Part shown: positions 17,218-62,149 of the stretch, piece by piece
How the letters are laid out: each line of letters begins with the position of its first letter
Numbering within the stretch: the stretch's first letter is position 1
NCBI GenBank assembly: GCA_043826565.1
Contig: JBDRPX010000015.1
Span: 3,317 to 67,316, forward strand
Direction of reading: 5' to 3'
Source: Candidatus Omnitrophota bacterium
GTDB taxonomy: Bacteria > Omnitrophota > Gorgyraeia > B26-G9
DNA: 64,000 nt
Translations under genes and position numbers: made by a program
Notes under the pieces: model-generated
What the model saw: only the letters and a program-made list of their open reading frames with translations
The model's database searches: none
Told to the model about the DNA's origin: nothing

Positions 17218-20200
17218 TCATATCGCCTGTTCCACCAGAGCAGAAATGCCGGTCATCGGATTAGCATTAATTTCCGATTGTAATCCACTATTGTTTGTTT
17301 CTCCGAGAAGAACATCAATCCTCACGATCTTCTTATCTCTCAGCTGATGCGCAATATTTTCATCAGTAATGGTGTCGCCAACAAATACCGCGGCAAGGTC
17401 TTTCCCTTCCAAATCTCGATAAATTCTGATCTGCTGTGGAACCACCGCACCTTCTCCAAAGGTATCCTTAAAATTTCCATCCAGGCTTAAAACATTATGA
17501 TAGACCAGTAAAGTATTTTTAAACTGTTTCGCGGCAAAGCTGCCCCGAGGCAAAACAATCTGTTTTTTCTCCCCGTTAACCATAAAAACCGCTTCCTCTT
17601 CCTGTGCCAGGAATAACTCGCCTGACAAACAAGGACTATAAGTAAATTGTTCCTGCCCCTGATTGTTTACACTAAAATAAGTCTCTCCCCAGAGCAGTTT
17701 TTCCAAAAACCATTTCATTACTTCGGAGTTATAACCGGAAAACCGGGCATAGTGTCCACGGCCTTCTTCATCCTGGTATGAGACATTCTGAAAGAAAGCA
17801 CGTCCGTAAACCAGCTCATCCATATACGGCGCGATATTGCGATGAATATCCGCGTAAAACTCGCTGATCAGTCCTGCTCCCAGCAATTCCGTCATGAATT
17901 TCCCTTCCTGATGTTTAAACGCACCATTCTCCAGATGCCCGCGCGGAAATACACTTTTCCGCCTTGTTACCAATTCCACCTCATCATCTTCAGTCAACGG
18001 TTCATTCAACCGATAATTGCCTGTCTGCGCGTTATACAGCTGTGTCTGCTGTACTTTCCGGTAGACTTCCCGGGCCTGCTGCGGATTTTCTGCGGTCTGT
18101 AAATCTCCGACAACGCCTTCCAGAAAAAGCGGCAATGACTTCCTGACAAACTTTTTGGCTTGGACCGCGGGAAAATCTTCCGCGGCCATTATTTCTTTGC
18201 CGCTCTGGTCGCGCAAGATCTCATATTCAGTCATATCATAATAAAAATACGCATGTGTTAATCCACTCTGCGGATCTTTTGCTTTGTCCAAAGCAGCACG
18301 CAGTTTCTTTTTTCCATCATTTAAAAAAGCTTTGATCTCCGCCACGGTTACGCGGTCGGTTTTTCCGGAAACACCCAGTCGTGTCTGAGCATTATATTCT
18401 TCCTGAAAGATATTGCTTTTATCCCAGAAATCGAAGCATTCCGTATCAGACTGAAAATCTTTTTTATCCACATGCTGATCCAGGACATCGGCAAGCTTCC
18501 GGAAATACGCAGCTTTTTCTTCTGAAACCGCCACCGTATCCGTCCCATTAAACTGCATAGCGTCAAAATACTGCTCCCAGGATTCAAAAAGAAGATATAA
18601 GTCTGTAGTGACCCGTGCCGATGAGCCGAAATAGGCAGCCAGTTTGCTTAAGGAGTCATCCCACCCAGGCTTACCCGCTTTAAATTCCACGCCCACTCCA
18701 TGCGGATCAAGATCGGCAATTTTCATCAGCAAAGTCAGCATTTTCTCAAAAGCAGAACTATAAAAAATATCCCCGGTTTCGTAATCGTAACCGGTATGCA
18801 CTTTATCTCTTGCCTCTTTCTGCCGGGATTCATTTCGCCTGCTTCTTTCTTCTACATGTTCCAGCACTTTTCGCTGTAGAGGTTTACCGTCTACTAAAGC
18901 ATATCTGCCGTTTGCCCCATAGCGGGGTTTTACTTGCACCGTAGATTCAAAGGCCGTAAGCTGAGTTTGGAAAAGAAGTTCTCTAAATCTTTTTCTATTC
19001 TCCTCTTTATCCAGAGGAAATAAACGTATAAAATTCTTAAAAAAATCGTTAATATATCCCACGCTATGATCCTGCCAATATCCCTCGCCAAAATCAGCCT
19101 GCTGAATAACCTCGGAAGAAGCGATTAGATCACGTAAAAACGCGTCTTTATCCTTGATCTTAATACCTTCTTTATCGATAAATTCCACTAATTTACGCAA
19201 TATAAAACCGTTTCGCAAAAAATCAGCCAGTTTATAAACATCTTTCCCTTTGACATAAGTTAATAAAAACCGGGGCAATCTTTTTTTCCCTCCGGCATAT
19301 TTCAATATTCCCGCCCCAACTCCCATGGGATTATATCCGTCTAATTGGACTAAAGACAGAAACCGCAGAATATCCGTTTCCGCCAGATCCGGATCGACCA
19401 GCATATTTGTCCGCCGGTTTTGCAGCACATCACGAAAATTACCCATACCTTCTTCCCGGTCAATGATGACAAAATTACCGTAATCACGTTCCTGATCAGC
19501 GTGCTTTACCTTGTTTTCATATTCCACGACAATGCGCCCATCCTTAGTTCGATATTCTGCTTTCACCGCCGGCATACCGCCCCGCAAATAATTTTCCAGT
19601 TTGCTCTGAGCAAACCAGGCATTAAGTTTCTTATCCCGGGAATGTATCCAGGCATCTTCGTATAACCATTGTTCGATGATCGCATCCATTTCCGCTCTTT
19701 TTTGCCGGAAATATTCTTTATTTAAAATTTTCCCCTCAAGCGCGGCAATCTTCGGGTCAAGCTCTCCGCTTTTTAACTTTTCCTGCGCTGATATCTGTCC
19801 ATAATATGAATAAATCGTATGTTCATTTCTACCTTCTCCCAAACGCACCCGGGCAAAATTCATAGCGCAGAAATGCTGGCCGCCGTCTTTATTATTCAAA
19901 CGATCGGACTGCTGCCGGGATTGGAATTCTCCAAAATCAGCGCCAAAAAAACGCGATGCCACCCGCCGGTCACCTTCCCCGAATACCCTGTCTTTATCCC
20001 AAACCGGAGAAATGGTTACAGAAGCATCAGAACTGAAGCTGGTATAAAAATTATTCAACTCATCGACAACCGGCTTCCCTCTCACATTGTCAACATTATC
20101 TTCTATTGCCCTGGCCCGGGTGAGCACAGTATTGCCTCTGAGCTCAACGGAATTGAAATACTGCCCGGTATGGGACATATTGTCCCGGGTCCATTTATTC

Positions 20201-20988
20201 TGCCCCGGGGACATGATCTTGCGCATTCCTTCCAGCACCTCATACTCTATTGCCGCTTGTTCAAACCCGGGTAACTTTCTCACTGTAAATTCCCGCGCGA
20301 ACAAAGGAACTCCTTCCCGCGGAACTTGATTATATGTGACTTCGACTTCTATACCTAAGGTAAGGTTTCTCTCCCGGATCTTTTTCTTTCCATTGCCGAG
20401 ATATTCAATTAATTCATTTTCTATTTCATAACCTCTTTGCAAAGAATCTTCCGGAAGAAAAGGAATATAATCAAGAACCATGTCTTCGCCGCCAAACAAA
20501 GTCCTGACCTTGAGAAAGGTTCCAAACCCCTGATTCAATACTTGTTCCATAGCCCTGTCCTTAGGCAAAAACTCCATGATCGGATCATCTTTAGTGGTAA
20601 CGTTGATACTGCTGATCTGCTCTCCTTTATTTACACTGAAAATCCCCAAACTTCCGCCGACCGGGGTGATCGTATCAGCGTATACAGGGAATTTATCGAA
20701 ATTTTTTATGACTACGCATTTATTTTCCGCGTCATAAACAGCCTCAGTTTGTCTTTTTTCATCAAGCTCCCGCATCCTTTGATCTATCAGATAAGCAACA
20801 TGTAATACTTCGGCAGTTTTCACCATGTGAAATGCCTGAAGAAAAACTGCATTATCTATTTCGATCCGGGGAGATAAACAGTTTTCAGAAACCGGCTCAG
20901 CGTACGCATGACTCTGCGGTAGGAAAAATAAGTTCTGGTTGAGTAAAAAAACGCTGATAAGAAAAATGCCGATATATTTGTTCCGCAT
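17218..20988 (-). CDS. large secreted protein (1256 aa), function unknown (possibly carbohydrate-active)
   Basis: signal peptide MRNKYIGIFLISVFLLNQNLFFLPQSHAYA; single long ORF with no low-complexity regions. Confidence 0.7.
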   Translation of the reverse strand: MRNKYIGIFLISVFLLNQNLFFLPQSHAYAEPVSENCLSPRIEIDNAVFLQAFHMVKTAEVLHVAYLIDQRMRELDEKRQTEAVYDAENKCVVIKNFDKFPVYADTITPVGGSLGIFSVNKGEQISSINVTTKDDPIMEFLPKDRAMEQVLNQGFGTFLKVRTLFGGEDMVLDYIPFLPEDSLQRGYEIENELIEYLGNGKKKIRERNLTLGIEVEVTYNQVPREGVPLFAREFTVRKLPGFEQAAIEYEVLEGMRKIMSPGQNKWTRDNMSHTGQYFNSVELRGNTVLTRARAIEDNVDNVRGKPVVDELNNFYTSFSSDASVTISPVWDKDRVFGEGDRRVASRFFGADFGEFQSRQQSDRLNNKDGGQHFCAMNFARVRLGEGRNEHTIYSYYGQISAQEKLKSGELDPKIAALEGKILNKEYFRQKRAEMDAIIEQWLYEDAWIHSRDKKLNAWFAQSKLENYLRGGMPAVKAEYRTKDGRIVVEYENKVKHADQERDYGNFVIIDREEGMGNFRDVLQNRRTNMLVDPDLAETDILRFLSLVQLDGYNPMGVGAGILKYAGGKKRLPRFLLTYVKGKDVYKLADFLRNGFILRKLVEFIDKEGIKIKDKDAFLRDLIASSEVIQQADFGEGYWQDHSVGYINDFFKNFIRLFPLDKEENRKRFRELLFQTQLTAFESTVQVKPRYGANGRYALVDGKPLQRKVLEHVEERSRRNESRQKEARDKVHTGYDYETGDIFYSSAFEKMLTLLMKIADLDPHGVGVEFKAGKPGWDDSLSKLAAYFGSSARVTTDLYLLFESWEQYFDAMQFNGTDTVAVSEEKAAYFRKLADVLDQHVDKKDFQSDTECFDFWDKSNIFQEEYNAQTRLGVSGKTDRVTVAEIKAFLNDGKKKLRAALDKAKDPQSGLTHAYFYYDMTEYEILRDQSGKEIMAAEDFPAVQAKKFVRKSLPLFLEGVVGDLQTAENPQQAREVYRKVQQTQLYNAQTGNYRLNEPLTEDDEVELVTRRKSVFPRGHLENGAFKHQEGKFMTELLGAGLISEFYADIHRNIAPYMDELVYGRAFFQNVSYQDEEGRGHYARFSGYNSEVMKWFLEKLLWGETYFSVNNQGQEQFTYSPCLSGELFLAQEEEAVFMVNGEKKQIVLPRGSFAAKQFKNTLLVYHNVLSLDGNFKDTFGEGAVVPQQIRIYRDLEGKDLAAVFVGDTITDENIAHQLRDKKIVRIDVLLGETNNSGLQSEINANPMTGISALVEQAI

Positions 20989-32403: not shown

Positions 32404-32703
32404 CTATTTAATTTTAGACATTATTGTTTTTGCTCCGACAAAGTCGCTTCCCTCTTCCTGACGCACAACCTTGTAAAACTCACAGCTTAAACATTTACTT
32501 AGCTTTACAGCAAATGAAGCTTGTTTTTCACCGTCACAAAGAGTATCCATGATCGCCCAGCAGGCCCGGCCGCCGTTTTTCCCATGGTTAATTCCCTCTG
32601 TTCTTTTTTCTGTTGCCGCCGTACATACCCCGCATTTTTCCGCATTTGCACCGCCCGGCTGGCATCCGCATTTTTTAAATTCCCAGCAATTAATTTTTAC
32701 CAT
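32404..32703 (-). CDS. small cysteine-rich protein, two-CW-domain-like (paralog 2)
   Basis: NCWEFKKCG..GKNGGRACWAIMDTLC..CLSCEFYKVVRQEE; two CW dipeptides. Confidence 0.6.
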   Translation of the reverse strand: MVKINCWEFKKCGCQPGGANAEKCGVCTAATEKRTEGINHGKNGGRACWAIMDTLCDGEKQASFAVKLSKCLSCEFYKVVRQEEGSDFVGAKTIMSKIK

Positions 32704-32958
32704 AAATTACCCCCAAGTAGAAACATAATATTCTCTCCTTTTATATCAGAAATTCACTAAAAAAGCAACCCTTAAAGACCTCCGCCGCATCGCCCGCCCC
32801 TTGCTTTTCCAAAAAATTTATGCTATCTTATGCACGTACCGTTAGTTTTGATCGTATGATCTTTTGCGGAAAAATACCTGGGCGGTGATCTGAGCGTAAG
32901 CGAAGATCATCTCGAACAGAGTGAGAGATCTTCAAAAAGCCTACAGGATAAGAATATC

Positions 32959-33291
32959 TTGATGAATAAAGATATATTTGTAAAACCTTGGTTTTTATAT
33001 ATCGCAAAATGTCGAGATGGGACACTTTATGTTGGTGTTGCGCAAGATGTATATAAAAGAATAAAGGAACATAATACAACCAATCGATGTAGATATACGC
33101 GGTTCCGCAAGCCACTAATATTGATATATAAGGAAAAATCTGATAATTATAGCTTAGTGCGAAAAAGAGAATCAGAAGTAAAGAAATTTAGTCGGAAGAA
33201 AAAGCTAGCGCTAATAGAACAAAGAATCTCAGAGAAGCTATCTCACCCCAAAGAACGGGGTTCGATATCCGCTGATCGAAGCAAAAGTTGA
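32959..33291 (+). CDS. small GIY-YIG nuclease-domain protein (paralog B) with basic C-terminal tail
   Basis: MNKDIFVKPWFLYIAKCRDGTLYVGVAQDVYKRIKEHN..; flanked by about 31-bp imperfect direct repeats. Confidence 0.75.
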   Translation: MMNKDIFVKPWFLYIAKCRDGTLYVGVAQDVYKRIKEHNTTNRCRYTRFRKPLILIYKEKSDNYSLVRKRESEVKKFSRKKKLALIEQRISEKLSHPKERGSISADRSKS

Positions 33292-33392
33292 GATCATCTC
33301 GAGCAAACGCGAGAGATCTGATTATATTTAGACATAAGACTTCTCACCTGAAAAACAGGTTCGACGTCCGCTCAAAATTATTAGCATAATTA

Positions 33393-33418
33393 TTCGCGGA
33401 GGAATGGCTGAGCGGTTG
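33393..33418 (+). repeat. 26-bp duplicate of the 5' end of tRNA-Ser(UGA) gene (ttcgc + acceptor/D-arm)
   Basis: ttcgcggaggaatggctgagcggttg identical to 33635..33660; not followed by the rest of a tRNA. Confidence 0.6.
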
Positions 33419-33639
33419 TCCGCCGGGAGGACACAGAGAAGTTGCCTACGGCGAGATCTCGCCCGGCCTAATAAGAAAAATTTTTGATTTTGGCCGAGGC
33501 GGAAATGCGGCTGGTCTTGCGAAGCGAATGAAATGAGCGGAGTCCCGCAAGGATGCTTAAATAAGAGCACTGTCGCGGGGCAAACCGTTGTAACAACGGA
33601 ATACATAGTATACTTAAACAAAAATTTAATATTTTTCGC

Positions 33640-33727
33640 GGAGGAATGGCTGAGCGGTTGAAAGCGGCGGTCTTGAAAACCGTTGTACTGCAAGGTACCG
33701 TGGGTTCGAATCCTACTTCCTCCGCCA
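33640..33727 (+). tRNA. tRNA-Ser (anticodon UGA), long variable arm
   Basis: GGAGGAA..anticodon loop CTTGAAA..variable arm TGTACTGCAAGGTAC..T-arm GTGGGTTCGAATCCTAC..TTCCTCC-G-CCA. Confidence 0.85.
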
Positions 33728-34032
33728 GAACATCAAACCCCCTTCATGGGGGTTTTTATTTTCTAGTCGTGGATGAGGAGGATGAGAACCCAAAAAGAGG
33801 ATTTTAAGGAGGAGGATTGTTCCTTCTTATCGGCGCACGTGAACCCCACGCGGAAGGAAAAGGAACAGCCCGAAGGGCGATAGGGAAAAACCATGAGGGT
33901 TTTTCTCTATAGAGTAAGCGGACCGCAATACCGGCAAAGCCGGTTGTAGGGAAGCGACACGACGGGGGCGTAATCCTACTTCCTCCGCCAGAAAAGCGCC
34001 TTTCACTGAAAGCCTTCTTTCTGGTATAATAA
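33721..34032 (+). repeat. structured non-coding repeat element copy 1, starting at tRNA-Ser 3' end (terminator, hairpin-rich core, duplicated tRNA 3' end, extended -10)
   Basis: about 90% identical to 38747..39045; reading frames not conserved between copies; ends with aatcctacttcctccgcca (19-bp repeat of tRNA 3' end) then TGGTATAAT. Confidence 0.6.
33735..33764 (+). terminator. intrinsic terminator after tRNA-Ser(UGA)
   Basis: AAACCCCCTTCATGGGGGTTTTTATTTTC. Confidence 0.6.
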
Positions 34033-34056
34033 CACATATTTAAAAAGGAAATTTTT

Positions 34057-34911
34057 ATGAAAAAATTAAAACCAAAAGAACCATTACTGGCGCTATTATT
34101 AGCCTGTCTTTTCCCAGGATTAGGACAAGTGTATGCAGGACAGACAAAACGCGGGATTAAATTCTTTTGCCTTTTAGTTGTCTTGCCGTTAATCCCCATC
34201 TTGTATCTTTTACATCCTCAGACAGGGATACCTGCTGTTTTAGGATATGCTTTTCTGGCAATGCTTGGCTTTCTGGTTATTTTAAGTTTTGTTGTGCTTG
34301 TAGACGCATATAAATGTGCAAAATCGTTCAATCGGCATCGTAATATTAAAATAACTACTTCTCGGTCAAAAAAGTTTTGGCTAATTATCTACATTATCTT
34401 TTTTCTCTTCGTGTTCAATCCTAGTTCTCTCGTTGGGCTTTATGTGAAAACATCGGTGATTCAAGCCTTTAAAATCCCGGTAGGCTCAATGATGCCTACA
34501 CTTATTGCAGGAGATCGTATTATTTGTAATAAACTGGCTTATAAAAAATCCGCACCGAAAAGAGGTGATGTTATAATTTTTAAATTTCCGGAAAACCCTA
34601 AAATTGTTTTTATTAAAAGACTCGTGGGATTTCCCGGAGAAACATTAGAAATTCGGAGTGGACAGATTATCATTAATGGCAAAACACTTAAAGAGCCTAA
34701 AGCAATAACACAAACGTTTTATCATAATCGCGGAGAATATGGACAGGAAGAACAAGCTATTACAATCCCAGAAGATAGTTATTTTTGCCTGGGAGATAAC
34801 AGCTATAATAGCAGAGATTCCCGTTATTGGGGGTTTGTCCCGAAAAAGAACCTTATAGGTAAAGCATATAAGATTTATTGGCCTTTTGATAGATCGGGGC
34901 CAATAGAATAA
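34057..34911 (+). CDS. lepB: signal peptidase I with extended multi-TM N-terminal region
   Basis: boxes GSMMPTL (Ser), KRLVGFPGE (Lys), GDNSYNSRDSRYWGFV; about 115-aa N-terminal membrane extension. Confidence 0.85.
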   Translation: MKKLKPKEPLLALLLACLFPGLGQVYAGQTKRGIKFFCLLVVLPLIPILYLLHPQTGIPAVLGYAFLAMLGFLVILSFVVLVDAYKCAKSFNRHRNIKITTSRSKKFWLIIYIIFFLFVFNPSSLVGLYVKTSVIQAFKIPVGSMMPTLIAGDRIICNKLAYKKSAPKRGDVIIFKFPENPKIVFIKRLVGFPGETLEIRSGQIIINGKTLKEPKAITQTFYHNRGEYGQEEQAITIPEDSYFCLGDNSYNSRDSRYWGFVPKKNLIGKAYKIYWPFDRSGPIE

Positions 34912-34925
34912 GAAAGGCATTTAAT

Positions 34926-36413
34926 ATGCGAGTAAACATTTTTGTTGGATTAGTAGTATTAGGACTTGGCCTTTATTGGCTTATCCCGTGGATTCGAAAA
35001 CTTAACGATAAATACATTAAAGGAGAATTTATTGTTAAGAAATATCCTTTGAAGGAAATTTGGAGTCAGATTATTGGCAATAAGGAAGTTTTAAAACGGC
35101 TTTTAATTACCGTTACAATTTTGATTTTAATACGCATGGCTTACCATATCCCCTTACCCTGTATTGACACAACTCCTATGAGGGACTTTTTTTCTAAACA
35201 CTCTACAATGAGCTCTTCTTATCCACAAATATATGTTCTAAATTTAGGGTTATTGCCTTTTACGGGAATGTGTGGTCTTTTGCTTTTGTTTTCAATTATT
35301 ATTCCTCCCCTGCGCAGAAACGTCTTTGGGGGCGAAAAAGGCCGTAATAAATTAATAAAACATACCTTGTTCGGCGCAGCAATACTAGCAATCTTCCAAT
35401 CCTACTCCTTTATGTCTTATGTGTTTGAACAGAATTTAGTCACAATCAACGGCCCTTATATTAATTTTATTATTATAAGTATAACAACTTTGTTAGCTGG
35501 AGTTTTTTGTTTAATTGTTGCCGCAGAAACTATTAATCGATTTGGAATTGGAAATGGATATGCCCTAATTATATCTGAGGCTATTCTGTTAGGAATCATA
35601 TCCAAATTGTATAAACTTCAATCCCTTTTACCTATACTTATGGTTCTTGGAATTCTTTTTGTACTTGGTTATTTTACCCGACTGATAAAACCTGAAGAAA
35701 TAATAAATAAAAAAGGAGAAAAAACAACACTGAAATTCCGGCTTAGCTGGGTTGGACTTGGCCCGCTCCTGCTGGCAAGCACAATTATCATGCCCTTATA
35801 CACTTTAACCCATTTTTGGAATGCTCGATGGATAAGTCATTATTATATTTTTGACATATTGACAGCTTTATTAATTATCCCTACTACTTTTTTATATAGC
35901 AGCATAGTCTTTGACCCCCAATATGTTTCGAAGCTTTTAAATAAATACGGCTATTCCTTTGCAAATAACCCTAAAGAGTTGACTCCAAGCCGCTATCTAG
36001 AAAAAACCGTGCTTAAAGTCCTTCCCATAACCGCTGTTTTATTATGCTTGGGCTATATGCTTCCAAAACTTTTGGTGCATACGAAACTTTATTCAGGATC
36101 AACGATGGTAGTCGTAATCGGAGGAAGATTAGGTCTTTGGGGCTTAACTGGTGCTTTTCTTGATTTACTCGACCAGTTAGAGTTTTTTCATAAAAAGAAA
36201 CTAGCTGGAATAAAAGAATGGGGAATTTGCTATGTAGCCCAGGACGAAATAGAAGCTAGCATAAAAAGTGGATACTTGAGATCACAAGAAATAAAGGCCT
36301 TAGTTAAACCCTATAGATATACTTGGGGCTTACCCATTAGAACAATGGTCGATAAATATGAAATTTATGTACCTCAAGAGCGAGTACAAAAGGCGCGGGA
36401 ACTGATCGTTTAA
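34926..36413 (+). CDS. SecY-homologous translocon-like membrane protein with extra N-terminal TM helix and C-terminal DUF2007-like soluble domain
   Basis: aligns with SecY blocks: LKRLLITVTILILIRMAYHIPLPCID, LGLLPF..IIPPLRR..GGEKGRNKLIKHTLFGAAILAIFQS, GIGNG, FDPQ..LNKYGY, C-terminal TM10-like VVVIGG..LDLLDQLE; then roughly 90 extra residues (EIYVPQERVQKARELIV). Confidence 0.7.
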   Translation: MRVNIFVGLVVLGLGLYWLIPWIRKLNDKYIKGEFIVKKYPLKEIWSQIIGNKEVLKRLLITVTILILIRMAYHIPLPCIDTTPMRDFFSKHSTMSSSYPQIYVLNLGLLPFTGMCGLLLLFSIIIPPLRRNVFGGEKGRNKLIKHTLFGAAILAIFQSYSFMSYVFEQNLVTINGPYINFIIISITTLLAGVFCLIVAAETINRFGIGNGYALIISEAILLGIISKLYKLQSLLPILMVLGILFVLGYFTRLIKPEEIINKKGEKTTLKFRLSWVGLGPLLLASTIIMPLYTLTHFWNARWISHYYIFDILTALLIIPTTFLYSSIVFDPQYVSKLLNKYGYSFANNPKELTPSRYLEKTVLKVLPITAVLLCLGYMLPKLLVHTKLYSGSTMVVVIGGRLGLWGLTGAFLDLLDQLEFFHKKKLAGIKEWGICYVAQDEIEASIKSGYLRSQEIKALVKPYRYTWGLPIRTMVDKYEIYVPQERVQKARELIV

Positions 36414-36432
36414 AACAAAAGGACGCTATTTA

Positions 36433-36879
36433 ATGAAACATCTTAGAAAAAGGTTATGTTTTTTTATACTACTAAGCGCTCTTATTTCTTACAGTTTTGC
36501 TTACGGAAGAGTATCAAGCATTAAGATTAATGAGCAGGCATATGAAGTTATCTATGGGGAGGAAATGACTATATACCTAGGCAAGCCCGCAAATCCACCG
36601 ACCCAACTTATAGCAAAACTTAAAGAATATTTCAAAACTAATAAAAAAATAGAATCTGCATACCTCGCACAAATGGCTGTGCCTCAAGAAAAACAACCTT
36701 CTCATCCAGTAATTGGAATAAAGATGTCTGGTCAAATTGAGACCATTTTAGATACACTGTTTTCTCTGGCAAAAGGATCATTAAGAAAGACCGACTTTGT
36801 TGATTTCATTCCCATTGAGCCTGGGACTACAATCTCAGAGTATATGCTTAAAGAAGTGGAGCCGTTTTATGAAAAATAA
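36433..36879 (+). CDS. secreted hypothetical protein (148 aa)
   Basis: signal peptide MKHLRKRLCFFILLSALISYSFA. Confidence 0.5.
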   Translation: MKHLRKRLCFFILLSALISYSFAYGRVSSIKINEQAYEVIYGEEMTIYLGKPANPPTQLIAKLKEYFKTNKKIESAYLAQMAVPQEKQPSHPVIGIKMSGQIETILDTLFSLAKGSLRKTDFVDFIPIEPGTTISEYMLKEVEPFYEK

Positions 36880-37582
36880 ATTCTTATTGTGTGCATTATT
36901 GTTGGCTATCGTCCTCGCCCCTGCCACCAATGCAATGTCCGAAGTAAAAAGCATTAAAGGCAGAAGCACAATTAAAACAGTTATGCGTGTAAGGTCTTTT
37001 AACTTTTCTGAGATAGAAAATTTGATGGGTAAAAGATGGAAAGAGGTTATTACGCTAAGACCCGATGTTCAAATCCTTTCAATGGGGCCTGATAATGTTG
37101 ATTTAACCCCTGACATTAACATTCCCCAAAAAGGGCTGATAGAGCAGGTATCCGACAAAGATTCCTTACATACAATTATGTATGCCTTTGAAGCTGGAGT
37201 TTTAGAATCTATAAGCATTGCCGGTAAAATCAATCACGTTGAAAGATCAAAAGTGATTGAACAGTCTCTTGCAAAATATGGTGATTATGATGCTATAGAG
37301 GGGGCAGTAACAGAAAAAAATATTGGTGTTTTAAAATGGGATAAGGGAAAGCGTCATATTAAACTTTGGCTGCCTTATTCGAGCAAAAACAAGGAGCAGA
37401 CATTTGCATTGCAGTTTTTATCGCAAAAAGCTCATGAAAAGTTTCAAACCGTAGAAAATGAAATCAAGGCAAAGAAAAAATCCATTACTGGTCAGGTCAC
37501 CCTAGACATCCCCCAAAATACCAAGATAAAAGCACTAAAAGACGAGATAGAAAATATCAAAAAAGCTCATGACAATAGATAA
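36869..37582 (+). CDS. secreted hypothetical protein with post-signal motif SEVKSIKGRSTI
   Basis: start reset to MKNKFLLCALLLAIVLAPATNA (RBS GTGGAG); shares the post-signal motif with the 46028..46666 product. Confidence 0.55.
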   Translation: MKNKFLLCALLLAIVLAPATNAMSEVKSIKGRSTIKTVMRVRSFNFSEIENLMGKRWKEVITLRPDVQILSMGPDNVDLTPDINIPQKGLIEQVSDKDSLHTIMYAFEAGVLESISIAGKINHVERSKVIEQSLAKYGDYDAIEGAVTEKNIGVLKWDKGKRHIKLWLPYSSKNKEQTFALQFLSQKAHEKFQTVENEIKAKKKSITGQVTLDIPQNTKIKALKDEIENIKKAHDNR

Positions 37583-37702
37583 AGCATGTTTACCCTCCCC
37601 TGTTTATCCAAAACAGTTTTCAGGGGGGATTAACGCTGTCCCCTTTAAGCATAATGACAGCAGAATCTTTTGCTAAAGGAATAAGTATGAAAGGAGAAGC
37701 TT

Positions 37703-38479
37703 GTGAAAATTTTTAAAATAATTACATGCCTTTTGGTCTTTTTATTGCTGGCAATTAACATGTCTTACGCTTCCCCAAACAAGGACTATTGTAATAAGAG
37801 GATGGGGTCTGATTATCAAGGGATCGGACGAGAATCTGAAAAATTGCAGGAAGTTGAGTTATTTTATGTTTTGGTGCAAAAACATTTAGAACCAACAAAA
37901 AATGTTGTAGTTGAAAATGCGCGAACTATTTATTTGCTTAAAGGAATAGAGCATGCAAGCAAAGGAAAGTATGATAAAGCAATTGAACAATTTAAAAAAG
38001 CACTTATTCTTAATCCTAAAGATGCCCTAGCACATAATTGCCTTGGGGGAGCTTATAAAAGCAAGGGCATGCTTGATGAAGCAATTAAAGCATACAAAAA
38101 AGCACTTATTCTTAATCCTAAAGATGCCCGCGCACATACTAGCCTTGCAGCAGTATATGAACGCAAAAAAATGCGTGATGAAGCAATCGAAGAATACAAA
38201 AAGGCTATCGCCATTGACCCCGAATATTTCAGGCCTCATTATGACCTTGGAGTAGCCTATAAATGCAAAGGAATGGTTGATGAAGCAATTGAAGAATACA
38301 AAAAAGCTCTTGTCATCGATCCTAACAATGCCAAGACACATTACGAATTGGCATTGTTATATTGCAATAAAAAGCAATATGACCTATCTATTGAACATTG
38401 TGATAAAGCAATTAAGTATGGTAAAAAAAGTTCTATGCTTTTAAAGCGGTTAGCTCCATTCCGAAATAAAGACTATTAA
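37703..38479 (+). CDS. secreted TPR-repeat protein
   Basis: signal peptide; five or more 34-aa repeats of the A..YKKAL.LNPKDA..H..LG.AY type. Confidence 0.8.
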   Translation: MKIFKIITCLLVFLLLAINMSYASPNKDYCNKRMGSDYQGIGRESEKLQEVELFYVLVQKHLEPTKNVVVENARTIYLLKGIEHASKGKYDKAIEQFKKALILNPKDALAHNCLGGAYKSKGMLDEAIKAYKKALILNPKDARAHTSLAAVYERKKMRDEAIEEYKKAIAIDPEYFRPHYDLGVAYKCKGMVDEAIEEYKKALVIDPNNAKTHYELALLYCNKKQYDLSIEHCDKAIKYGKKSSMLLKRLAPFRNKDY

Positions 38480-38491
38480 TCCAAAACATGC

Positions 38492-38731
38492 TTATTCCCC
38501 TCCCCTTCTAATATGCCGAATCGCCCTAATAACAGTCTTTTTACTAACCTTCAGACTCTGGGCTATATCTATGTAGTTCATGCCTAATAGGCATAATTGT
38601 GTGGCTTTTGGGGCTATCTTTTGATATAAAGGGATTTGTTGTGTTGGAAGTACTTTGATATGTGCGTTGATTTCGGCTGCACATTCGACAGGCTCAGTGT
38701 GCCCGGTGGTCACGGTGCGAATTGGTTGCAA
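38492..38731 (-). CDS. small HTH-domain protein (transposase-N-terminus / sigma-70 region-4-like HTH), paralog 1, TTG start
   Basis: LQPIRTVTTGHTEPVECAAEINAHIKVLP...LLGMNYIDIAQSLKVSKKTVIRAI; about 75% identical to the 46947..47186 product; first roughly 90 nt nearly identical at DNA level. Confidence 0.5.
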   Translation of the reverse strand: MQPIRTVTTGHTEPVECAAEINAHIKVLPTQQIPLYQKIAPKATQLCLLGMNYIDIAQSLKVSKKTVIRAIRHIRRGGE

Positions 38732-38746
38732 CTGCGTCCGCCAGAA

Positions 38747-39045
38747 AATCAAACCCCCTTCATGGGGGTTTTTATTTTCTAGTCGTGAATGAGGAGGATG
38801 AGAACCCAAAAAGAGGATTTTAAGGAGGAAGATTGTTCCTCCTTGTCGGCGCACGTACCCCCACCCGGAAGGAAAAGGAACAGCCCGAAGGGCGATAGGG
38901 AAAAACCATGAGGGTTTTCCTCTATGGAGTGAGCGGACCGCAATACCGGCAAAGCCGGTTGTAGGGAAGCGACACGATGGGGGCGTAATCCTACTTCCTC
39001 CGCCAAAAGCACCTTTCTCCAAAAGCCTTCTTTCTGGTATAATAA
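38747..39045 (+). repeat. structured non-coding repeat element copy 2 (terminator, core, tRNA-Ser 3'-end-like segment, extended -10)
   Basis: see 33721..34032; here it abuts the 5' end of the small HTH gene at ...gcgtccgcca. Confidence 0.6.
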
Positions 39046-39131: not shown

Positions 39132-41000
39132 TTAATCCATCACTTTATATAGTATTATCGGATATTTCACTCCGCCTTCCCACTCCTTAAGCTTTTTAAA
39201 TATTTCCGGATGTTCCCGCGCCCAGAAATAATCCTTATGCACTGCTCCTTTATTCCAATGCGGAACCCAGGCAAAGAAATAATTTGCCCCGTGTTTTTCA
39301 AGCTGCGCTGCCCATTCTTCATAAGATTGGGCAACAAAACTTTCTTTATATAGAGTTTTATAAGCAGGGACCTGCACAATATCATGTTGTAATCTCTGTC
39401 CATACAAAGGAGTTGTCAGTTCCTGATGACTGTAAGCAATAACGCTTCCGTCAGGAGCATTATCATTCATCCATTCCCAGGCATTAGCAATACTGCCATA
39501 TATCATCTTATAATACTTATATTGTGATACCTTTTTTGTTTTAAAATATTCGCCTGATATATTTGCCTGATACGGAACAAGCCGCGGCAAAGAAGTGATG
39601 AAAGAAAAAAACAAGCAGTACAGAATTAATCCTCCCATGATTTTCTTCTGCCAGGTGTTTAAATCGTCATATACATAAGCAGTAGCAACTGCTGTTATAC
39701 TGCAAATAAATACTATATACCGCGGAACCGGGCAATTATTGGAAATAAGCCAAAAAAAGATAAGCACAGGAAACAACATGAAAATCAATAAGGATTGTTT
39801 GTCTTTTTTTATAACTGATAAGTATATCGAGTAAATAAGGCTTACGATTCCTAGCGCAAACTGTACCCCAAAACCATTTTCTATAGAATAAGCAAACTCC
39901 CCCCTTACCTTTTCCTTTATAGGATACAAAAACCATTCCAAGGGAGTATTCACAAACCATTTTGAGTAATCGGATGCGGAATGCACAGCAATGGTTCCTT
40001 TAAAAAGCTTAACCCCCAGGAGTTTTATGGTGTATGGAAAAACAGGGTTGCCGGTTAAGATCAGATTCCTAATATACCAAAAACCTCCTGCGGCAAATAA
40101 TAAAACCCCTCCGATAATAATATTATTCCGGGAAGTTTTCTGATTATAAGAAAAAATTAGAAATATTAGCCCTATCGGAATAGCAATAATGCCAGCCGGT
40201 TTCATGCCTGCAGACAGTCCCAAAGCAATACAACTTAACATCACAAAAAGAGGTTTTTTTGTTTGCGAATATCCGAGGATAAAGTTTATCCCTGCGACAA
40301 TAAAACATCCGAACATTAAGTCTACGTAGGAAACAGAACATAAAAGCATTACTACCGGGGTGAATAATATTATAGGTATCGTGACAGCTGGGTTCTTTAT
40401 ATTCAGTTTTTTAGCTATACTGTACGTTGAAAGAGCAAAAATAAAAGCAAAAGGTATTTGAATGAGGTTTAGAATATGCATATTCTTACTTGTAATGTAT
40501 GCCCAAAGCATAACAAGCGATCCGTTTTGAGGAAAATAAGAAGTGTCTCTCAGGGGTTGGATCATCGTTAATCTCTCCGTTTTTACCCATTGGGCAACTG
40601 CGAGGAGATGATATGAAATGCTGTCCCAAGCGTATGGAGGAATGAGTAAACTGAGAAAAAAAATAAGGCCGTATGCTATGAGAATGAATTGGAATGCAAG
40701 AACAGTCTCTATTGGTATTGCTTTACAGTAAAAAGAGGATATTAACTTTTTCCATTCAATCTTGCTGCTTGTACATACGAGGATAAACAATGATATTGCG
40801 ATATTTGAGGAAACAACCAATACTGAATTTAAAAATCCAAGGATCCCGAGAATAGCTTGCGTCACTATGATCTGAAAAACAAACAAGGTAAAGCCAGCAA
40901 TTATAATATCACTTTTCTCTTCCAATCTCGTGGCAAAATACTTAAGATAAGAGAATGTAATGAATAATGATATTGATAACAATATGATCAGGTATGCCAT
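39132..41000 (-). CDS. GT-C fold polytopic membrane glycosyltransferase-like protein with C-terminal soluble domain
   Basis: at least 12 TM helices over about 450 aa then hydrophilic C-terminal domain; architecture like ArnT/PMT-type enzymes. Confidence 0.55.
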   Translation of the reverse strand: MAYLIILLSISLFITFSYLKYFATRLEEKSDIIIAGFTLFVFQIIVTQAILGILGFLNSVLVVSSNIAISLFILVCTSSKIEWKKLISSFYCKAIPIETVLAFQFILIAYGLIFFLSLLIPPYAWDSISYHLLAVAQWVKTERLTMIQPLRDTSYFPQNGSLVMLWAYITSKNMHILNLIQIPFAFIFALSTYSIAKKLNIKNPAVTIPIILFTPVVMLLCSVSYVDLMFGCFIVAGINFILGYSQTKKPLFVMLSCIALGLSAGMKPAGIIAIPIGLIFLIFSYNQKTSRNNIIIGGVLLFAAGGFWYIRNLILTGNPVFPYTIKLLGVKLFKGTIAVHSASDYSKWFVNTPLEWFLYPIKEKVRGEFAYSIENGFGVQFALGIVSLIYSIYLSVIKKDKQSLLIFMLFPVLIFFWLISNNCPVPRYIVFICSITAVATAYVYDDLNTWQKKIMGGLILYCLFFSFITSLPRLVPYQANISGEYFKTKKVSQYKYYKMIYGSIANAWEWMNDNAPDGSVIAYSHQELTTPLYGQRLQHDIVQVPAYKTLYKESFVAQSYEEWAAQLEKHGANYFFAWVPHWNKGAVHKDYFWAREHPEIFKKLKEWEGGVKYPIILYKVMD

Positions 41001-51897: not shown

Positions 51898-53190
51898 TTA
51901 CTCCTCCTTTCTTTGGTTAGGTTCAATAAGCTCCCGCCCGTCCATATACGGCCGTAAAACTTCCGGAACAATAATCGACCCGTCTTTTTGCTGATAGGTT
52001 TCCATTATCGCGATCACTGTTCTGGCCAAGGCAACACCGGAACCATTTAAAGTGTGCACAAAATTTGTTTTTCCGGTTGCGGAATCTTTATATTTAATAT
52101 TTGCCCGGCGCGCCTGAAAATCTTCAAAATTACTACAGCTGGAAACTTCCAGCCATTTCCCTACCCCCGGAGCCCACGCTTCGATATCATAACACTTAGC
52201 TGCCGCAAAGCTGATATCACCGGTTGATAAACACAGTACCCGATAAGGAAGTTTTAAAAGCTGAAGCACAGTTTCCGCGTTAGTTAATAAGGTTTCCAGC
52301 TCATTGTATGAATCCTGCGGTTTGACAAATTTAACCATTTCCACCTTATCAAACTGATGAACTCTCATCAAACCGCGGGTATCTTTACCATAAGACCCTG
52401 CTTCCCTTCTAAAGCAAGGGGTATAGGCGGTGTAATATATCGGGAGCTCCCCATCATTCAATACTTCATCTCTATGTATATTAGTTACAGGCACTTCTGC
52501 TGTTGGAATCAAAAATAAATCATCTTCACAGGCCCGATACATATCTTCTTCAAGCTTCGGAAGTTGTCCAGTCCCAGTCATGCTCGCCCTATTCACCAAA
52601 AGTGGAGGGGAAATCTCAGTATACCCGTGCTTTTGTGTGTGCAATCCCAACATAAAATTAATTAAAGCTCTTTCCATTCTGGCCCCAACACCTTTAAAAA
52701 GCACAAAATTTGACCCTGTCAACTTGGCTGCTCTGGCAAAATCTATAATATCAAGGTGTTCTGATAGAGCAATATGATCTTTTGGCGTAAAATCAAAAGA
52801 ACAGATTTCTCCCCATTTTTTAATTTCAATGTTTGCGGCGGCATCTTTTCCTATTGGTACTGATTTATGGGGTATATTTGGGACATTGATTACTATATCA
52901 GAAACTTTTTGGTTAACATCACCCACTTTTGCATCAAATTCCTTGATTTTTTGGGACAACTCCTTTAGTGTGGTTCTTTTTTCCGAAACATCTTCTTTTT
53001 TGGCTATTAGCTTAGCCATTTCATCAGAAGCCAGGTTTCTTTGACGTTTTAATTCCTCTACCTCGGTTAGTAGTTCTCTTTTTTGCTTATCCAGCGCCAG
53101 TAATTCATCAATACTAATACGCATATTGCGATTTCCTATCGCCGCTTTTACAATCTCTGGATTTTCTCTAATAAATTTTAGGTCTAACAT
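51898..53190 (-). CDS. serS: seryl-tRNA synthetase
   Basis: N-terminal coiled-coil arm, class II motifs; MLDLKFIRENPE.. typical SerRS start. Confidence 0.9.
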   Translation of the reverse strand: MLDLKFIRENPEIVKAAIGNRNMRISIDELLALDKQKRELLTEVEELKRQRNLASDEMAKLIAKKEDVSEKRTTLKELSQKIKEFDAKVGDVNQKVSDIVINVPNIPHKSVPIGKDAAANIEIKKWGEICSFDFTPKDHIALSEHLDIIDFARAAKLTGSNFVLFKGVGARMERALINFMLGLHTQKHGYTEISPPLLVNRASMTGTGQLPKLEEDMYRACEDDLFLIPTAEVPVTNIHRDEVLNDGELPIYYTAYTPCFRREAGSYGKDTRGLMRVHQFDKVEMVKFVKPQDSYNELETLLTNAETVLQLLKLPYRVLCLSTGDISFAAAKCYDIEAWAPGVGKWLEVSSCSNFEDFQARRANIKYKDSATGKTNFVHTLNGSGVALARTVIAIMETYQQKDGSIIVPEVLRPYMDGRELIEPNQRKEE

Positions 53191-54808: not shown

Positions 54809-54822
54809 AACTATCCCTTTAT

Positions 54823-55263
54823 TTATACATCAAATATTACTTCTGCTTGCCAGGAGTTGTTTACACGCGTAATTTTGAGCTGGTGATAAGTAACTGCTTT
54901 GATTTCAGTCACAGCTTCATAATTATGTTCGAGACGGGTAAAGGCAATGCTCGCCTTAAGTTCAATGCCGGAGAGTTTGGTAATGCGTATTTGGGAAGCA
55001 ACTCCCCTTTTAATATCAGCTAGGCTAAGCAGTTCGCTTAGCCAGCTAACCAGAAGTTCTTCGGCATTGTTCGCGGTAACCAACACTTTAACTTCTTCGG
55101 GCTGCCCCTTCTTTGGTTTAGGTTTTTGATCAGCAATTATGCTAAACATTCCCTGGGCCGCGTTTAAAAAAAGTTCTTTTTTGTTTTTTCCAAACGCCCG
55201 CAACCCAATATCTGCTGTGTGCTCTATAATTTCAAACTTCTTGCGTTGGCTCTTCTTCTTCAT
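54823..55263 (-). CDS. archease (RtcB activator)
   Basis: [12 protein letters not shown] archease signature; start placed at [10 protein letters not shown]..; 5' end overlaps gyrA 3' end by about 30 bp. Confidence 0.75.
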
Positions 55264-57685: not shown

Positions 57686-57749
57686 TGCTTTTGTGTCTCC
57701 TTGTCCTTGTCTCGGGCGGAGGCAAGCGCCGCCCCTACACTATTAATTT

Positions 57750-60275
<2,526 letters not shown>

Positions 60276-60542
60276 TTATGTGATCCACCACAAAGCATTG
60301 GCAGATAATCTTCGCCTTATTCCTCTCTGGCTTAAAAGTCAATTTTTTCTGCGTCTCGATTAAAATAAAACGTTTGTTCTTTTTATTAATGTTTTAATAG
60401 TTGTGTTTGTTTTATATTTATTCCCTTGTTTTGTGATTATTGTTGTTTTTGTTTTTGCTTTATTTTTTTTTGTATTAGAGCTAATTATTACAATAATATC
60501 ATCAAGGGTTATTGTTTTTTGTTTATCAATATAAAGAAACAT

Positions 60543-60857: not shown

Positions 60858-60902
60858 TTTTTATCTCGAGCGGACACAAGGGCCGCCCCTACAGGTTTTA
60901 CA

Positions 60903-62009: not shown

Positions 62010-62149
62010 CTTATCCCCCTTTTTATTAACAGATTGTTATACTAATATTCTATTATATTATATCTAAAAATCAGCCGTCTTAGTAGTAGTACTCTTGTTA
62101 ATATGTTAATAACTAAGTTAAACCAACACACCGAACAAGGTTATATTTT

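Follow-up and report, generated by a model that had tools for sequence, protein, structure and literature searches.

A rare SecY-like protein with a fused C-terminal domain, encoded beside a signal peptidase I gene in an Omnitrophota genome

In the 64-kb stretch of Omnitrophota DNA analysed here (the window), a gene for a divergent SecY-like protein lies directly downstream of one for signal peptidase I (LepB) and is followed by three genes for apparently exported proteins. Do these genes form a secretion system of their own, as a preliminary description proposed, or does the SecY-like protein belong to something wider, with the signal peptidase a chance neighbour? The ORF coordinates and the plus strand originally given for the five genes are correct, and the locus is laid out as follows.

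33640..33727, plus strand: tRNA-Ser (anticodon tga; ARAGORN; Rfam tRNA, 60.1 bits)
33721..34033, no strand: left copy of a 313-nt direct repeat (repeat search, pairwise alignment, blastn)
34002..34030, plus strand: candidate operon promoter, sigma-70-like, TTCACT-17-TG-TATAAT (best match; 10/12, extended -10)
34057..34911, plus strand: long-form signal peptidase I (LepB), 284 aa (PF10502, TIGR02227, hydropathy)
34926..36413, plus strand: SecY-like ORF, 495 aa (ORF list; Pfam SecY)
34926..35060, plus strand: SecY-like aa 1-45, extra N-terminal TM helix (TM0) and basic linker (AF2, Kyte-Doolittle, alignment)
35061..36206, plus strand: SecY-like aa 46-427, 10-TM SecY core
36207..36413, plus strand: SecY-like aa 428-495 and stop codon, cytosolic C-terminal domain
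36433..36879, plus strand: 148-aa protein with signal peptide and SseB_C domain (PF14581, 85.2 bits; N-terminal features)
36869..37582, plus strand: 237-aa signal-peptide protein, from an internal ATG (ORF list; Logan gene call)
37703..38479, plus strand: 258-aa signal-peptide protein with at least 5 TPR repeats (TPR families up to 144 bits)
38492..38731, minus strand: short HTH-like ORF fragment abutting the right repeat (HTH_23, E=9.5e-4, 19.4 bits, below cutoff)
38737..39045, no strand: right copy of the 313-nt direct repeat (repeat search, alignment, blastn)

Organisation of the locus

The flanks consist, as first described, of a tRNA-Ser and repeats. The two repeat copies, the only ones in the window (blastn), are 94% identical and matched no family in an Rfam search. 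They bracket a segment of ~4.7 kb at the 3' end of the tRNA-Ser, the left copy beginning within the tRNA and sharing its last 7 nt (alignment of both copies). Three features lie inside the left copy. A hairpin at 33735-33755 resembles a terminator, and at ~33971-33990 the 3' end of the tRNA occurs once more, over 19-22 nt. The third is the sigma-70-like promoter candidate, 27 nt from the lepB start; promoter-like sites in the region are in total no more numerous than shuffling would predict, so this match is only suggestive. A hairpin with a T-run in the right copy (38751-38771) could terminate the operon. By their spacing, the five genes from lepB to the TPR gene look like one co-transcribed operon, since successive gaps measure 14, 19, -11 and 120 nt, with a single promoter-like site upstream and a single terminator-like hairpin downstream; RBS-like motifs are present. 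The tight packing of lepB against the SecY-like gene was thus rightly noted, although the gap is 14 nt and not 15.

Signal-peptide-like N-termini are seen in each of the three downstream products (sequence features), one of which is indeed rich in TPRs, its gene being built on a 102-nt tandem repeat at the DNA level. The 237-aa gene overlaps the preceding one by 11 nt; its product has no Pfam match and no homolog in any retrieved locus. The HTH-like fragment, with no PHROG or PADLOC match, could be what is left of a gene from a mobile element. A gene search of the window revealed no integrase with the direct repeats, and the five genes are uniform in composition, with a GC content that is no outlier. 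The unit had also been described as head-on to replication, unlike almost every other gene. The orientation is plausible (dnaA, dnaN, gyrB and gyrA are minus-strand genes at 55-63.5 kb, and GC skew of the plus strand is negative), but the contrast was overstated, since the plus strand carries 12 of the window's 40 genes.

A SecY-derived family with a conserved cytosolic tail

The 495-aa product is a true, though atypical, homolog of SecY, as had been argued. Pfam SecY recovers it at 89.2 bits and the family profile matches the SecYs of Aquifex (E=2e-92) and E. coli (E=1e-84) end to end, while the housekeeping equivalog TIGR00967 fails (79.5 bits, cutoff 253.6) and the window protein scores 524 bits with the family HMM against 132 with a canonical one. 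The motif blocks previously matched to SecY are real, but the alignment moves their labels: LKRLL...IPLPCID is TM1 and its loop rather than TM2, GEKGR...AIFQS falls in the TM2-TM3 loop plus TM3 rather than the TM3-TM4 loop, and FxP...K.GY, taken as plug-proximal, is the end of TM8 plus the C5 loop. The extra N-terminal helix within the first ~45 aa holds up (AF2 helix 3-31; Kyte-Doolittle TM segment 5-23). Canonical SecYs align to the family profile only from position ~44, and a comparable hydrophobic N-terminal segment occurs in 30 of 49 family members.

At the other end, canonical SecYs stop at profile position ~425, whereas the family continues, directly after TM10, into a soluble domain of ~68 aa (428-495) with a beta-alpha-beta-beta-alpha order. 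A soluble, DUF2007-like domain had been anticipated here; its length is less than the ~90 aa supposed, and the DUF2007 match is sub-threshold (14.3 bits for the whole protein, 19.3 for the domain alone, cutoff 25.7), with weak matches in 12 of 23 family C-terminal domains. The domain thus resembles DUF2007 (PF09413) by sequence yet remains below the Pfam threshold. The nearest solved folds are D1-type domains of SctJ, the T3SS inner-ring lipoproteins (PrgK, EscJ, MxiJ), at 13-19% sequence identity. These are periplasmic ring builders, whereas the present domain is cytosolic and fused to a channel, and the similarity, being one of small alpha/beta folds, establishes neither homology nor ring formation. 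A frameshift artefact as the source of the fusion was rejected, since an independent Logan assembly gives the identical 495-aa product and the fusion is family-wide.

An exhaustive HMMER search, with matches running through the C-terminal domain, found the fusion in ~75 clusters at 50% identity. We recovered 15 genome and 35 metagenome loci of the family; ~47 loci with the fusion come from MAGs of Omnitrophota, Planctomycetia, Desulfobacterota-type bacteria and Bdellovibrionota. Among 185,579 species genomes there were 15 matches, which at a scan sensitivity of ~63% suggests some 20-25 genomes. Canonical SecYs group in a clean clade to which no family member belongs; mean identity is 26% among family members and 41% among canonical SecYs, and 23% from one group to the other. 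Automatic annotation names family members SecY in UniRef and IMG and 'hypothetical protein' in the NCBI pipeline. The family is rare, apparently undescribed and, it appears, not recognised as distinct in public databases.

What the family has kept and lost bears on its role. On the plug and pore ring, whose retention had been left to structure prediction, the outcome is divided: the complete 10-TM fold is kept, together with GIGNG and the TM2, TM7 and TM10 signatures across ~75 divergent clusters, but conservation is relaxed at the FSGG plug motif and in the Ile pore ring (alignment, 49 members), the six ring positions of the window protein being L, T, Y, I, L and G. Such weak conservation would fit a channel with altered sealing and a loss of translocation equally well. 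On the cytosolic side, the tip of the C4 hairpin is gapped (a deletion of ~9 residues) and the C5 PG(I/V)RPG ('PGIRPG') motif absent in 49/49 aligned members, and arginine at the R357 position is found in none of the 49, against 31 of 33 canonical SecYs. SecA-driven translocation in E. coli depends critically on R357 of SecY, and it is through the C4 and C5 loops that SecY contacts the ribosome and SecA. Judging from the alignments, the family has lost the motifs at which SecA and the ribosome usually dock, and has acquired a conserved domain as its cytosolic tail.

The explanation that we favour, with moderate confidence, is that ORF 34926-36413 belongs to a rare family of SecY-derived paralogs acting as an accessory channel or insertase with private substrates, its adjacency to lepB being local. 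The protein would work in the membrane alongside ordinary SecYEG. Neither canonical SecA nor docking to the ribosome would drive it; it would instead be fed, gated or oligomerised via its C-terminal domain, and would probably handle a private set of envelope proteins.

In a less probable scenario, the protein is a non-conducting SecY-derived scaffold whose C-terminal domain carries the actual function, be it in signalling, in regulation or in binding either a partner or the canonical translocon. No other region of the family is as well conserved as this domain, which contrasts with a fast-evolving core, and Pfam words DUF2007, which the domain resembles, as a 'putative signal transducing protein'. 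The relaxed plug and ring, the docking motifs missing from all members and the lack of a SecE-like, SecG-like or motor gene beside the family gene in any of 52 loci also suit a scaffold. However, retention of the 10-TM architecture and its motifs over ~75 divergent clusters speaks for selection acting on the channel fold as such. In superposition, moreover, the AF2 model fits substrate-engaged SecY best, and family genes tend weakly to adjoin genes for exported proteins (18% versus 10%, p=0.03, one borderline test based on a crude heuristic).

The signal peptidase and the neighbourhoods of family genes

The LepB was correctly described as a complete signal peptidase I with a long multi-TM N-terminus: it reaches 162.5 bits with TIGR02227 (cutoff 47) and 159 bits with PF10502, the sequence contains S144 in GSMMPTL, K187 in IKRLVG and box E as GDNSYNSRDSRYWG, and four hydrophobic or TM segments precede the S26 catalytic domain (hydropathy). 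It has ~90 full-length relatives at 43-60% identity. This long form is a common Omnitrophota type and the window copy an ordinary member, with the same S26 domain, all catalytic boxes and the same neighbours. In six neighbourhoods of relatives, tRNA, TPR and PMT_2 neighbours occur as in the window, while the SecY-like gene is absent from all six; it lies next downstream only here. A tRNA-lepB-TPR neighbourhood with PMT_2 close by recurs among Omnitrophota, and in this genome it also contains the SecY-like, 148-aa and 237-aa genes.

Conversely, no LepB, SseB_C protein or homolog of the 237-aa protein was found within 7-10 kb of the family gene in ~50 loci, and in 52 family loci covering 489 kb L15, Adk and Map genes are absent and no other neighbour recurs. 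Because of these ~50 loci without LepB and the six LepB relatives without the SecY-like gene, the LepB is not dedicated to the SecY-like gene; their pairing is peculiar to the window genome, and there is no conserved LepB/SecY-like machine.

These results weigh on the preliminary description's own model, a self-contained, mobile secretion cassette whose channel exports the three downstream proteins with LepB as dedicated signal peptidase, which we now consider improbable. The co-directional, tightly packed and compositionally uniform genes, the exported look of all three downstream products and the block between direct repeats beside a tRNA, with an HTH-like fragment adjoining, speak for it. 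Nevertheless, the supposedly distinct, conserved arrangement of SecY-like protein, LepB and substrates recurs in none of the ~50 family loci, family genes have no recurrent partner of any kind, the LepB is of a common type often found with tRNA, TPR and PMT_2 genes, and there is neither an integrase nor a compositional anomaly. Furthermore, no relative of the SecY-like gene exceeds 37% identity, and hence there is no second instance of the cassette in 5.8 billion clusters.

From distribution, divergence and context we strongly infer that the SecY-like gene is a second copy, accessory to a canonical secY, and, as first observed, it stands outside a ribosomal-protein/adk/map context. That it might be the lineage's sole housekeeping SecY, diverged and relocated from the spc operon, is very improbable: the 64-kb window contains no other secY and automatic annotation in UniRef and IMG would agree, but the same divergent type is sporadic in at least four phyla and, by estimate, in 20-25 of the 185,579 species genomes. 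It groups apart from canonical SecYs, no member has the R357 motif or the C4 tip, the TIGR00967 score falls far short of the cutoff and the NCBI pipeline calls family members 'hypothetical protein'. Canonical SecYEG, moreover, has been reported in complete Omnitrophota genomes (10.1101/2023.11.21.568195).

Comparison with known translocons

Relative to housekeeping SecY (PF00344, TIGR00967), the family retains GIGNG at the start of TM5, the TM2 'G.xPF.SAC..Q' and TM10 'GV..D...Q.E' signatures and the 'P.R.S..G..P' strand after the C4 hairpin. In contrast, at a mean identity of 23%, it adds the N-terminal TM helix and the ~68-aa C-terminal domain, is without the C4 tip (~9 residues), C5 PG(I/V)RPG/R357, a conserved FSGG plug and the Ile ring, and its gene is never beside rplO, adk or map.

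The SecY2 of the Gram-positive aSec system is likewise a divergent, additional SecY homolog whose gene stands apart from the ribosomal operon, and the window locus similarly lies beside genes for exported proteins. However, aSec loci comprise SecA2, Asp1-5, glycosyltransferases and a serine-rich-repeat adhesin, all absent from the window and not recurrent in the 52 family loci. SecY2 is not known to have a fused C-terminal domain, and the hosts of the SecY-like family are diderm phyla. The distinction drawn early on from both aSec and SCY2 is therefore borne out, the window being without SecA2, Asp or Gtf genes and no gene family recurring beside the family gene. Plastid SCY2/SECA2 and yeast Ssh1 are eukaryotic or organellar examples of paralogous SecY/Sec61 channels for subsets of substrates, with dedicated partners (SECA2 for SCY2; Sbh2 and Sss1 for Ssh1). 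No partner gene of this kind was found for the SecY-like family in 52 loci, and, in contrast to these channels, the family remodels its cytosolic docking loops differently and appends a domain.

The SecY-like protein and its family

The 495-aa SecY-like protein is a member of an apparently undescribed family of SecY-derived paralogs, in which the cytosolic face is remodelled and a conserved domain has been fused to the channel. Its homology to SecY, proposed in the preliminary description with a profile-HMM search as the suggested check, is confirmed by a match to Pfam PF00344 of 89.2 bits (gathering cutoff 32.2), covering profile positions 3-300 of 306, and the protein has the ten-TM pseudo-symmetric channel fold. 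With the equivalog TIGR00967, which represents housekeeping SecY, it scores 79.5 bits, under the cutoff of 253.6. The family profile aligns end to end with SecYs of solved structure (e.g., Aquifex residues 3-423, E=2e-92), and an AlphaFold2 model of the protein, built from an alignment of 49 family sequences, has a pLDDT of 90.0 and a pTM of 0.90. Two segments lie outside the core. The N-terminal segment of about 45 residues, for which an extra TM helix had been claimed, indeed contains a hydrophobic helix (residues 3-31), followed by a Lys/Arg-rich linker, and is consistent with an added helix, TM0, whose N-terminus lies outside. At the other end, residues 428-495 form a compact beta-alpha-beta-beta-alpha domain (pLDDT 96-98). 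A soluble C-terminal extension is therefore present as described, its size in the model being about 68 aa and not about 90 aa. A frameshift artefact as the source of this fusion was ruled out, since the same product is found in the Logan assembly and the fusion is conserved in the family.

The alignment of the 49 family members with 33 canonical (housekeeping) SecYs and E. coli SecY shows that the GIGNG, TM2 and TM10 signatures are kept in the family. The C5 loop motif PG(I/V)RPG is missing from all 49 members, the C4 hairpin has lost its tip (E. coli 255-258) in 47-49 of them, and Arg or Lys at the position of E. coli R357 occurs in 0/49 family members versus 33/33 canonical SecYs. Work on the SecYs of E. 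coli and Thermus has established that SecA and the ribosome bind mainly to the C4 and C5 loops, and that translocation driven by SecA depends critically on R357. Thus, it is exactly the cytosolic docking surface that has been remodelled, and the new domain is placed there. The FSGG plug motif is not conserved in the family and is gapped in 16 of the 49 members. Residues at the six pore-ring positions are mostly hydrophobic yet variable (L, T, Y, I, L, G in the window protein), the alignment near I278 being possibly imprecise; the pore-ring isoleucines are near-invariant among canonical SecYs. When the core columns are used for a neighbour-joining tree, all canonical SecYs group in one clean clade that excludes every family member. 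The family is internally the more divergent, its members sharing 26% identity on average as against 41% for the canonical SecYs; between the groups the mean is 23%. Its best-conserved region is the C-terminal domain, with a mean consensus frequency of 0.59 versus 0.40 in the core.

Taken together, we lean towards an accessory channel or insertase, operating without canonical SecA or ribosome docking, as the most likely function of the protein. The main rival is a non-translocating, scaffold-type role, which we regard as possible, if rather doubtful.

The DUF2007-like signature previously noted in the C-terminal region proves to be a recurrent resemblance that stays under the gathering threshold. 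DUF2007 (PF09413) scores 14.3 bits on the whole protein and 19.3 bits on the domain alone, against a cutoff of 25.7, and sub-threshold matches were obtained in 12 of 23 family C-terminal domains (best E=7.9e-5). Judged from these profile scores, the resemblance to DUF2007 is remote only. Relatives of solved structure were not found when the domain was compared with PDB sequences. We infer that matches to the C-terminal domain fall on residues 428-495, the sole compact alpha/beta domain in the model, and we take them as a lead towards oligomerisation or docking and not as evidence of homology.

Other arrangements of these domains were also observed. Fragments of the C-terminal domain alone (64 aa and 31 aa, 55-61% identity) occur at two loci of a single genome, the Planctomycetales MAG CAZTCI01 (L018, 10013-10204; L020, 9992-10084), with no SecY core ORF; these may be pseudogene remnants or stand-alone mini-domains. 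Among SecY-containing proteins, P0011 has three N-terminal zinc-ribbon repeats (CPKC...CSDCH) ahead of the SecY core, P0098 and P0139 combine one N-terminal zinc ribbon with a more typical DUF2007-like tail, and P0078 is nearer to canonical SecY, yet ends in a DUF2007-like tail. Given these variant architectures, the fusion of such a domain to SecY may have happened more than once, or the variants may form a continuum.

The lepB-headed cassette beside tRNA-Ser

In this genome, a Candidatus Omnitrophota MAG (NCBI tag ABII88_04130) of which the window covers 64 kb of a 143-kb contig, the SecY-like gene lies within a probable operon that starts with lepB, encodes exported proteins and is located next to a tRNA-Ser gene. 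The ORF list agrees with the preliminary description in placing all five genes of this cassette on the plus strand:

34057-34911, plus strand: signal peptidase I (LepB), 284 aa (ORF list)
34926-36413, plus strand: SecY-like protein, 495 aa (ORF list)
36433-36879, plus strand: 148-aa protein with an SseB_C domain (85 bits) and signal-peptide features
36869-37582, plus strand: 237-aa protein with an internal ATG start, called identically in an independent Logan assembly
37703-38479, plus strand: TPR protein, 258 aa (ORF list)

The intergenic gaps measure 14, 19, -11 and 120 nt, and purine-rich RBS-like motifs are found 5' of the genes. A basic n-region, a hydrophobic h-region and small residues at -3/-1 are present in 3/3 downstream proteins, which upholds their earlier description as signal-peptide proteins. 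The TPR gene contains four tandem DNA repeats of 102 nt (34 codons) at 37957-38364, which at 64-79% identity are still recognisable at the DNA level.

The cassette is bracketed by a 313-nt direct repeat of 94% identity (33721-34033 and 38737-39045) whose first nucleotides are the final 7 nt of tRNA-Ser, so that the flanking tRNA-Ser and repeat elements reported before are substantiated. Within the repeat are a terminator-like hairpin and a stretch of 19-22 nt that duplicates the tRNA 3' end. The best promoter-like match of the region (TTCACT-17-TG-TATAAT) is located at the right edge of the repeat, 27 nt before lepB, and the right copy supplies a hairpin and T-run after the last cassette gene. 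Direct repeats with a tRNA 3' end flanking an insert, as in tRNA-associated islands, are therefore present. No integrase or recombinase was found at the cassette, the only candidate being a 79-aa HTH_23-like fragment (E=9.5e-4) on the minus strand, which abuts the right repeat copy. GC and GC3 of the cassette are about 1 SD under the window mean and are not outliers, and the five genes are compositionally uniform; compositional evidence for a foreign origin is thus not significant. The block has the look of a tRNA hotspot that underwent an insertion or duplication long ago, a recent island being disfavoured because of the missing integrase, the uniform composition and the absence of the family from viral contigs, plasmids and phages (zero members in IMG/VR, PLSDB and INPHARED, which gave canonical SecY matches only). 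We also considered the 313-nt repeat as a structured RNA, and no Rfam family apart from the tRNA matched under either the gathering or the E-value threshold. Further debris surrounds the tRNA-Ser locus (32859-33660, where Rfam families were not matched): a 30-nt copy of the tRNA-Ser 5' end at 33389-33418, 97% identical to 33631-33660, and a small GIY-YIG ORF at 32959-33291 (Pfam, 54 bits) flanked by a 36-nt imperfect direct repeat (32883-32918 and 33270-33305).

On a larger scale, dnaA, dnaN, gyrB and gyrA lie in a row on the minus strand (55232-63484), plus-strand GC skew is negative throughout the window and nears zero at its right end, and an AT-rich stretch (GC 0.315) is found at 60-62 kb. 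The chromosomal replication origin is probably located at or just past ~63.5-64 kb of the window. From the position of these four genes and the negative skew, replication probably proceeds leftward through the window, with the cassette head-on at ~25-29 kb from the origin. The head-on orientation claimed previously is thus probably correct; that it sets the cassette apart from almost every other gene is overstated, since 12 of the 40 window genes are on the plus strand. Elsewhere in the window, a 99-aa Cys-rich ORF at 32404-32703, minus strand (CWEFKKCGC…CGVC…CWAIMDTLC…CLSCEFY) has no Pfam or PHROG match, and two large minus-strand ORFs, 6765-9833 (1021 aa) and 17218-20988 (1255 aa), have no Pfam match at E<=1e-5. 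An RtcB RNA ligase gene (592 bits) adjoins that of its activator archease (53360-55293, minus strand), with seryl-tRNA synthetase downstream (51898-53190).

The first gene encodes a complete signal peptidase I, as had been recognised: LepB scores 162.5 bits on TIGR02227 (signal peptidase I, S26A; cutoff 47), and its catalytic boxes can be read from the translation (S144 in GSMMPTL, K187 in IKRLVG, box E GDNSYNSRDSRYWG). It is of a long form, with four N-terminal TM segments preceding the S26 domain, of which about 90 full-length relatives exist at 43-60% identity. A SecY-like gene is absent from six neighbourhoods of these relatives. In two of the six (L057, L061) TPR proteins lie 3' of lepB, in two (L059, L061) PMT_2 glycosyltransferases lie upstream, and in two a tRNA gene is found ~90 nt upstream of lepB (tRNA-Gln in L059, 5839-5912; tRNA-Asn in L061, 5840-5914). 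The window likewise contains tRNA-Ser, lepB, a TPR protein and a PMT_2-like gene (39132-41000). Different tRNAs take part in this recurrent linkage with lepB, which echoes the tRNA-Ser/lepB/PMT_2 arrangement of the window. The simplest reading is that of a recurrent Omnitrophota neighbourhood that here also contains the SecY-like, 148-aa and 237-aa genes. The closest LepB relative (L057) has genes for 147-aa and 239-aa proteins beside lepB; these were considered as the same gene set minus the SecY-like gene, an idea rejected given the lack of tblastn homology.

The preliminary description had suggested a LepB dedicated to the SecY-like channel, in a distinct SecY-like/LepB/substrate cassette. 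This is contradicted by tblastn searches of the window LepB, SseB_C protein and 237-aa protein against ~50 family loci (the gene neighbourhoods of family members), which detected no homolog within 7-10 kb at E<=0.1. A self-contained machine made up of LepB, the SecY-like channel and its substrates is consequently unlikely. The LepB-linked cassette appears to be a one-genome arrangement, and the claim of a LepB-dedicated cassette therefore matters less. Overall, the initial observations stand; of their interpretation, the divergent SecY-like protein is retained and the LepB-dedicated system is not.

The four-TM region of LepB (aa 1-125, 34057-34420) has a 'PGLGQVYAG' motif and weak matches to TM2, DUF6677 and DUF5683. 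This N-terminal module is kept in the ~90 Omnitrophota-type LepBs, and a separate short form of ~180 aa also exists. A defence system was considered as well: the only PADLOC match is a weak one to KwaA, the Kiwa membrane protein (24.6 bits), on this TM-rich N-terminus, and was judged probably compositional.

Distribution and gene neighbourhoods of the family

A word-indexed search recovered just two relatives of the SecY-like protein (32-35% identity), and its repetition with the 49-sequence alignment added hardly any further members; exhaustive search and DNA-pattern scans were therefore used to define the family. When 1.84 billion representatives were searched exhaustively with HMMER, matches that run through the C-terminal domain came from ~75 clusters (50% identity); those of canonical SecYs score lower and end at profile position ~425. 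Scans of DNA for C-terminal motifs specific to the family yielded loci both in species-representative genomes (15) and in JGI metagenomes (35). Among the carriers are GCA_028719205.1, MHFR01 (Ca. Danuiimicrobium aquiferis, protein OGX04460.1), PLNR01, JAZDEX01, CAMDWQ01 and JAFGNJ01. All 15 genome loci belong to MAGs, from Omnitrophota, Planctomycetia, Deltaproteobacteria/Thermodesulfobacteriota and Pseudobdellovibrionaceae. Of the 49 aligned members, 31 are matched by the scan patterns, so that the family is probably present in only ~20-25 of 185,579 species genomes. NCBI names its members 'hypothetical protein', and UniRef and IMG auto-label them SecY. We found no paper in the literature describing the family, joining SecY with DUF2007, or reporting an extra SecY in these phyla.

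As initially stated, the SecY-like gene is outside a ribosomal-protein/adk/map operon according to the window annotation, and L15, Adk or Map do not recur as neighbours of the family gene in 52 loci covering 489 kb. In L007, a locus with a family member, the gene lies between leuB-like and asd-like housekeeping genes. A canonical secY was found neither within the 64-kb window nor in 55 loci. That the SecY-like protein is the sole housekeeping SecY of this genome is very improbable: the family is rare, scattered over at least four phyla and separate from the canonical clade, the score on the housekeeping equivalog TIGR00967 is below its cutoff and universal housekeeping motifs are missing, the family gene in the 52 loci never adjoins those of L15, Adk or Map and in L007 has the setting just described, and canonical SecYEG is reported from complete Omnitrophota genomes (10.1101/2023.11.21.568195).

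All-against-all clustering of the family neighbours revealed no recurrent gene family beyond generic SDR and response-regulator genes and a pair confined to one subclade. This conserved pair follows the family gene in a Desulfobacterota-type subclade (L012, 10337-11092; L014, 3465-4238; three further metagenome loci) and consists of the gene for a 133-aa protein and that for a Cys-rich one of 97-112 aa (…GYCPLMS…CKKERCSWW…); it is the sole subclade-specific conserved neighbourhood found. Signal-peptide-like genes, counted by a crude heuristic over non-redundant family loci, make up 24 of 132 genes at two or fewer positions from the family gene versus 23 of 233 farther away (odds ratio 2.0, Fisher p=0.03), an enrichment of exported proteins that is suggestive only.

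Comparison with known accessory Sec systems

SecY is among the most conserved proteins in biology, and to our knowledge its sole recognised bacterial paralog is the SecY2 of Gram-positive aSec systems. A family that keeps the channel, drops the SecA and ribosome contact motifs and gains a conserved cytosolic domain would be a natural experiment in the re-coupling of the translocon, with another driver or regulator in place of the usual one. An export or insertion route so far unrecognised would also be indicated in Omnitrophota, Planctomycetota, Bdellovibrionota and Desulfobacterota. In addition, PF00344 matches by family genes may affect single-copy-marker estimates for MAGs.

In aSec loci, SecA2, Asp1-3 (and Asp4/5), glycosyltransferases and a serine-rich-repeat substrate are co-located. 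In contrast, the window contains no SecA-type or Asp-type protein and neither type forms a recurrent neighbour family in the family loci, so that the dissimilarity to aSec pointed out in the preliminary description is maintained. We tentatively put forward a more specific scenario, itself improbable as a whole. In this genome, an operon headed by lepB would have taken up the gene along with three of its clients, and the channel, which has lost the canonical docking loops for SecA and the ribosome, would serve the export or insertion of envelope proteins private to it. One candidate partner would be the scaffold-less SecA_DEAD domains, which have been described both from giant proteins of Omnitrophota and from the secondary SecA-like proteins that PVC bacteria encode. 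The family, which would be specific to diderm lineages with unusual envelopes or predatory/symbiotic lifestyles, might then represent a third class of accessory protein-conducting channel, after the aSec SecY2 and the plastid SCY2, in which the conserved cytosolic alpha/beta domain would recruit a non-canonical motor or targeting factor, or would oligomerise, in the service of private envelope clients.
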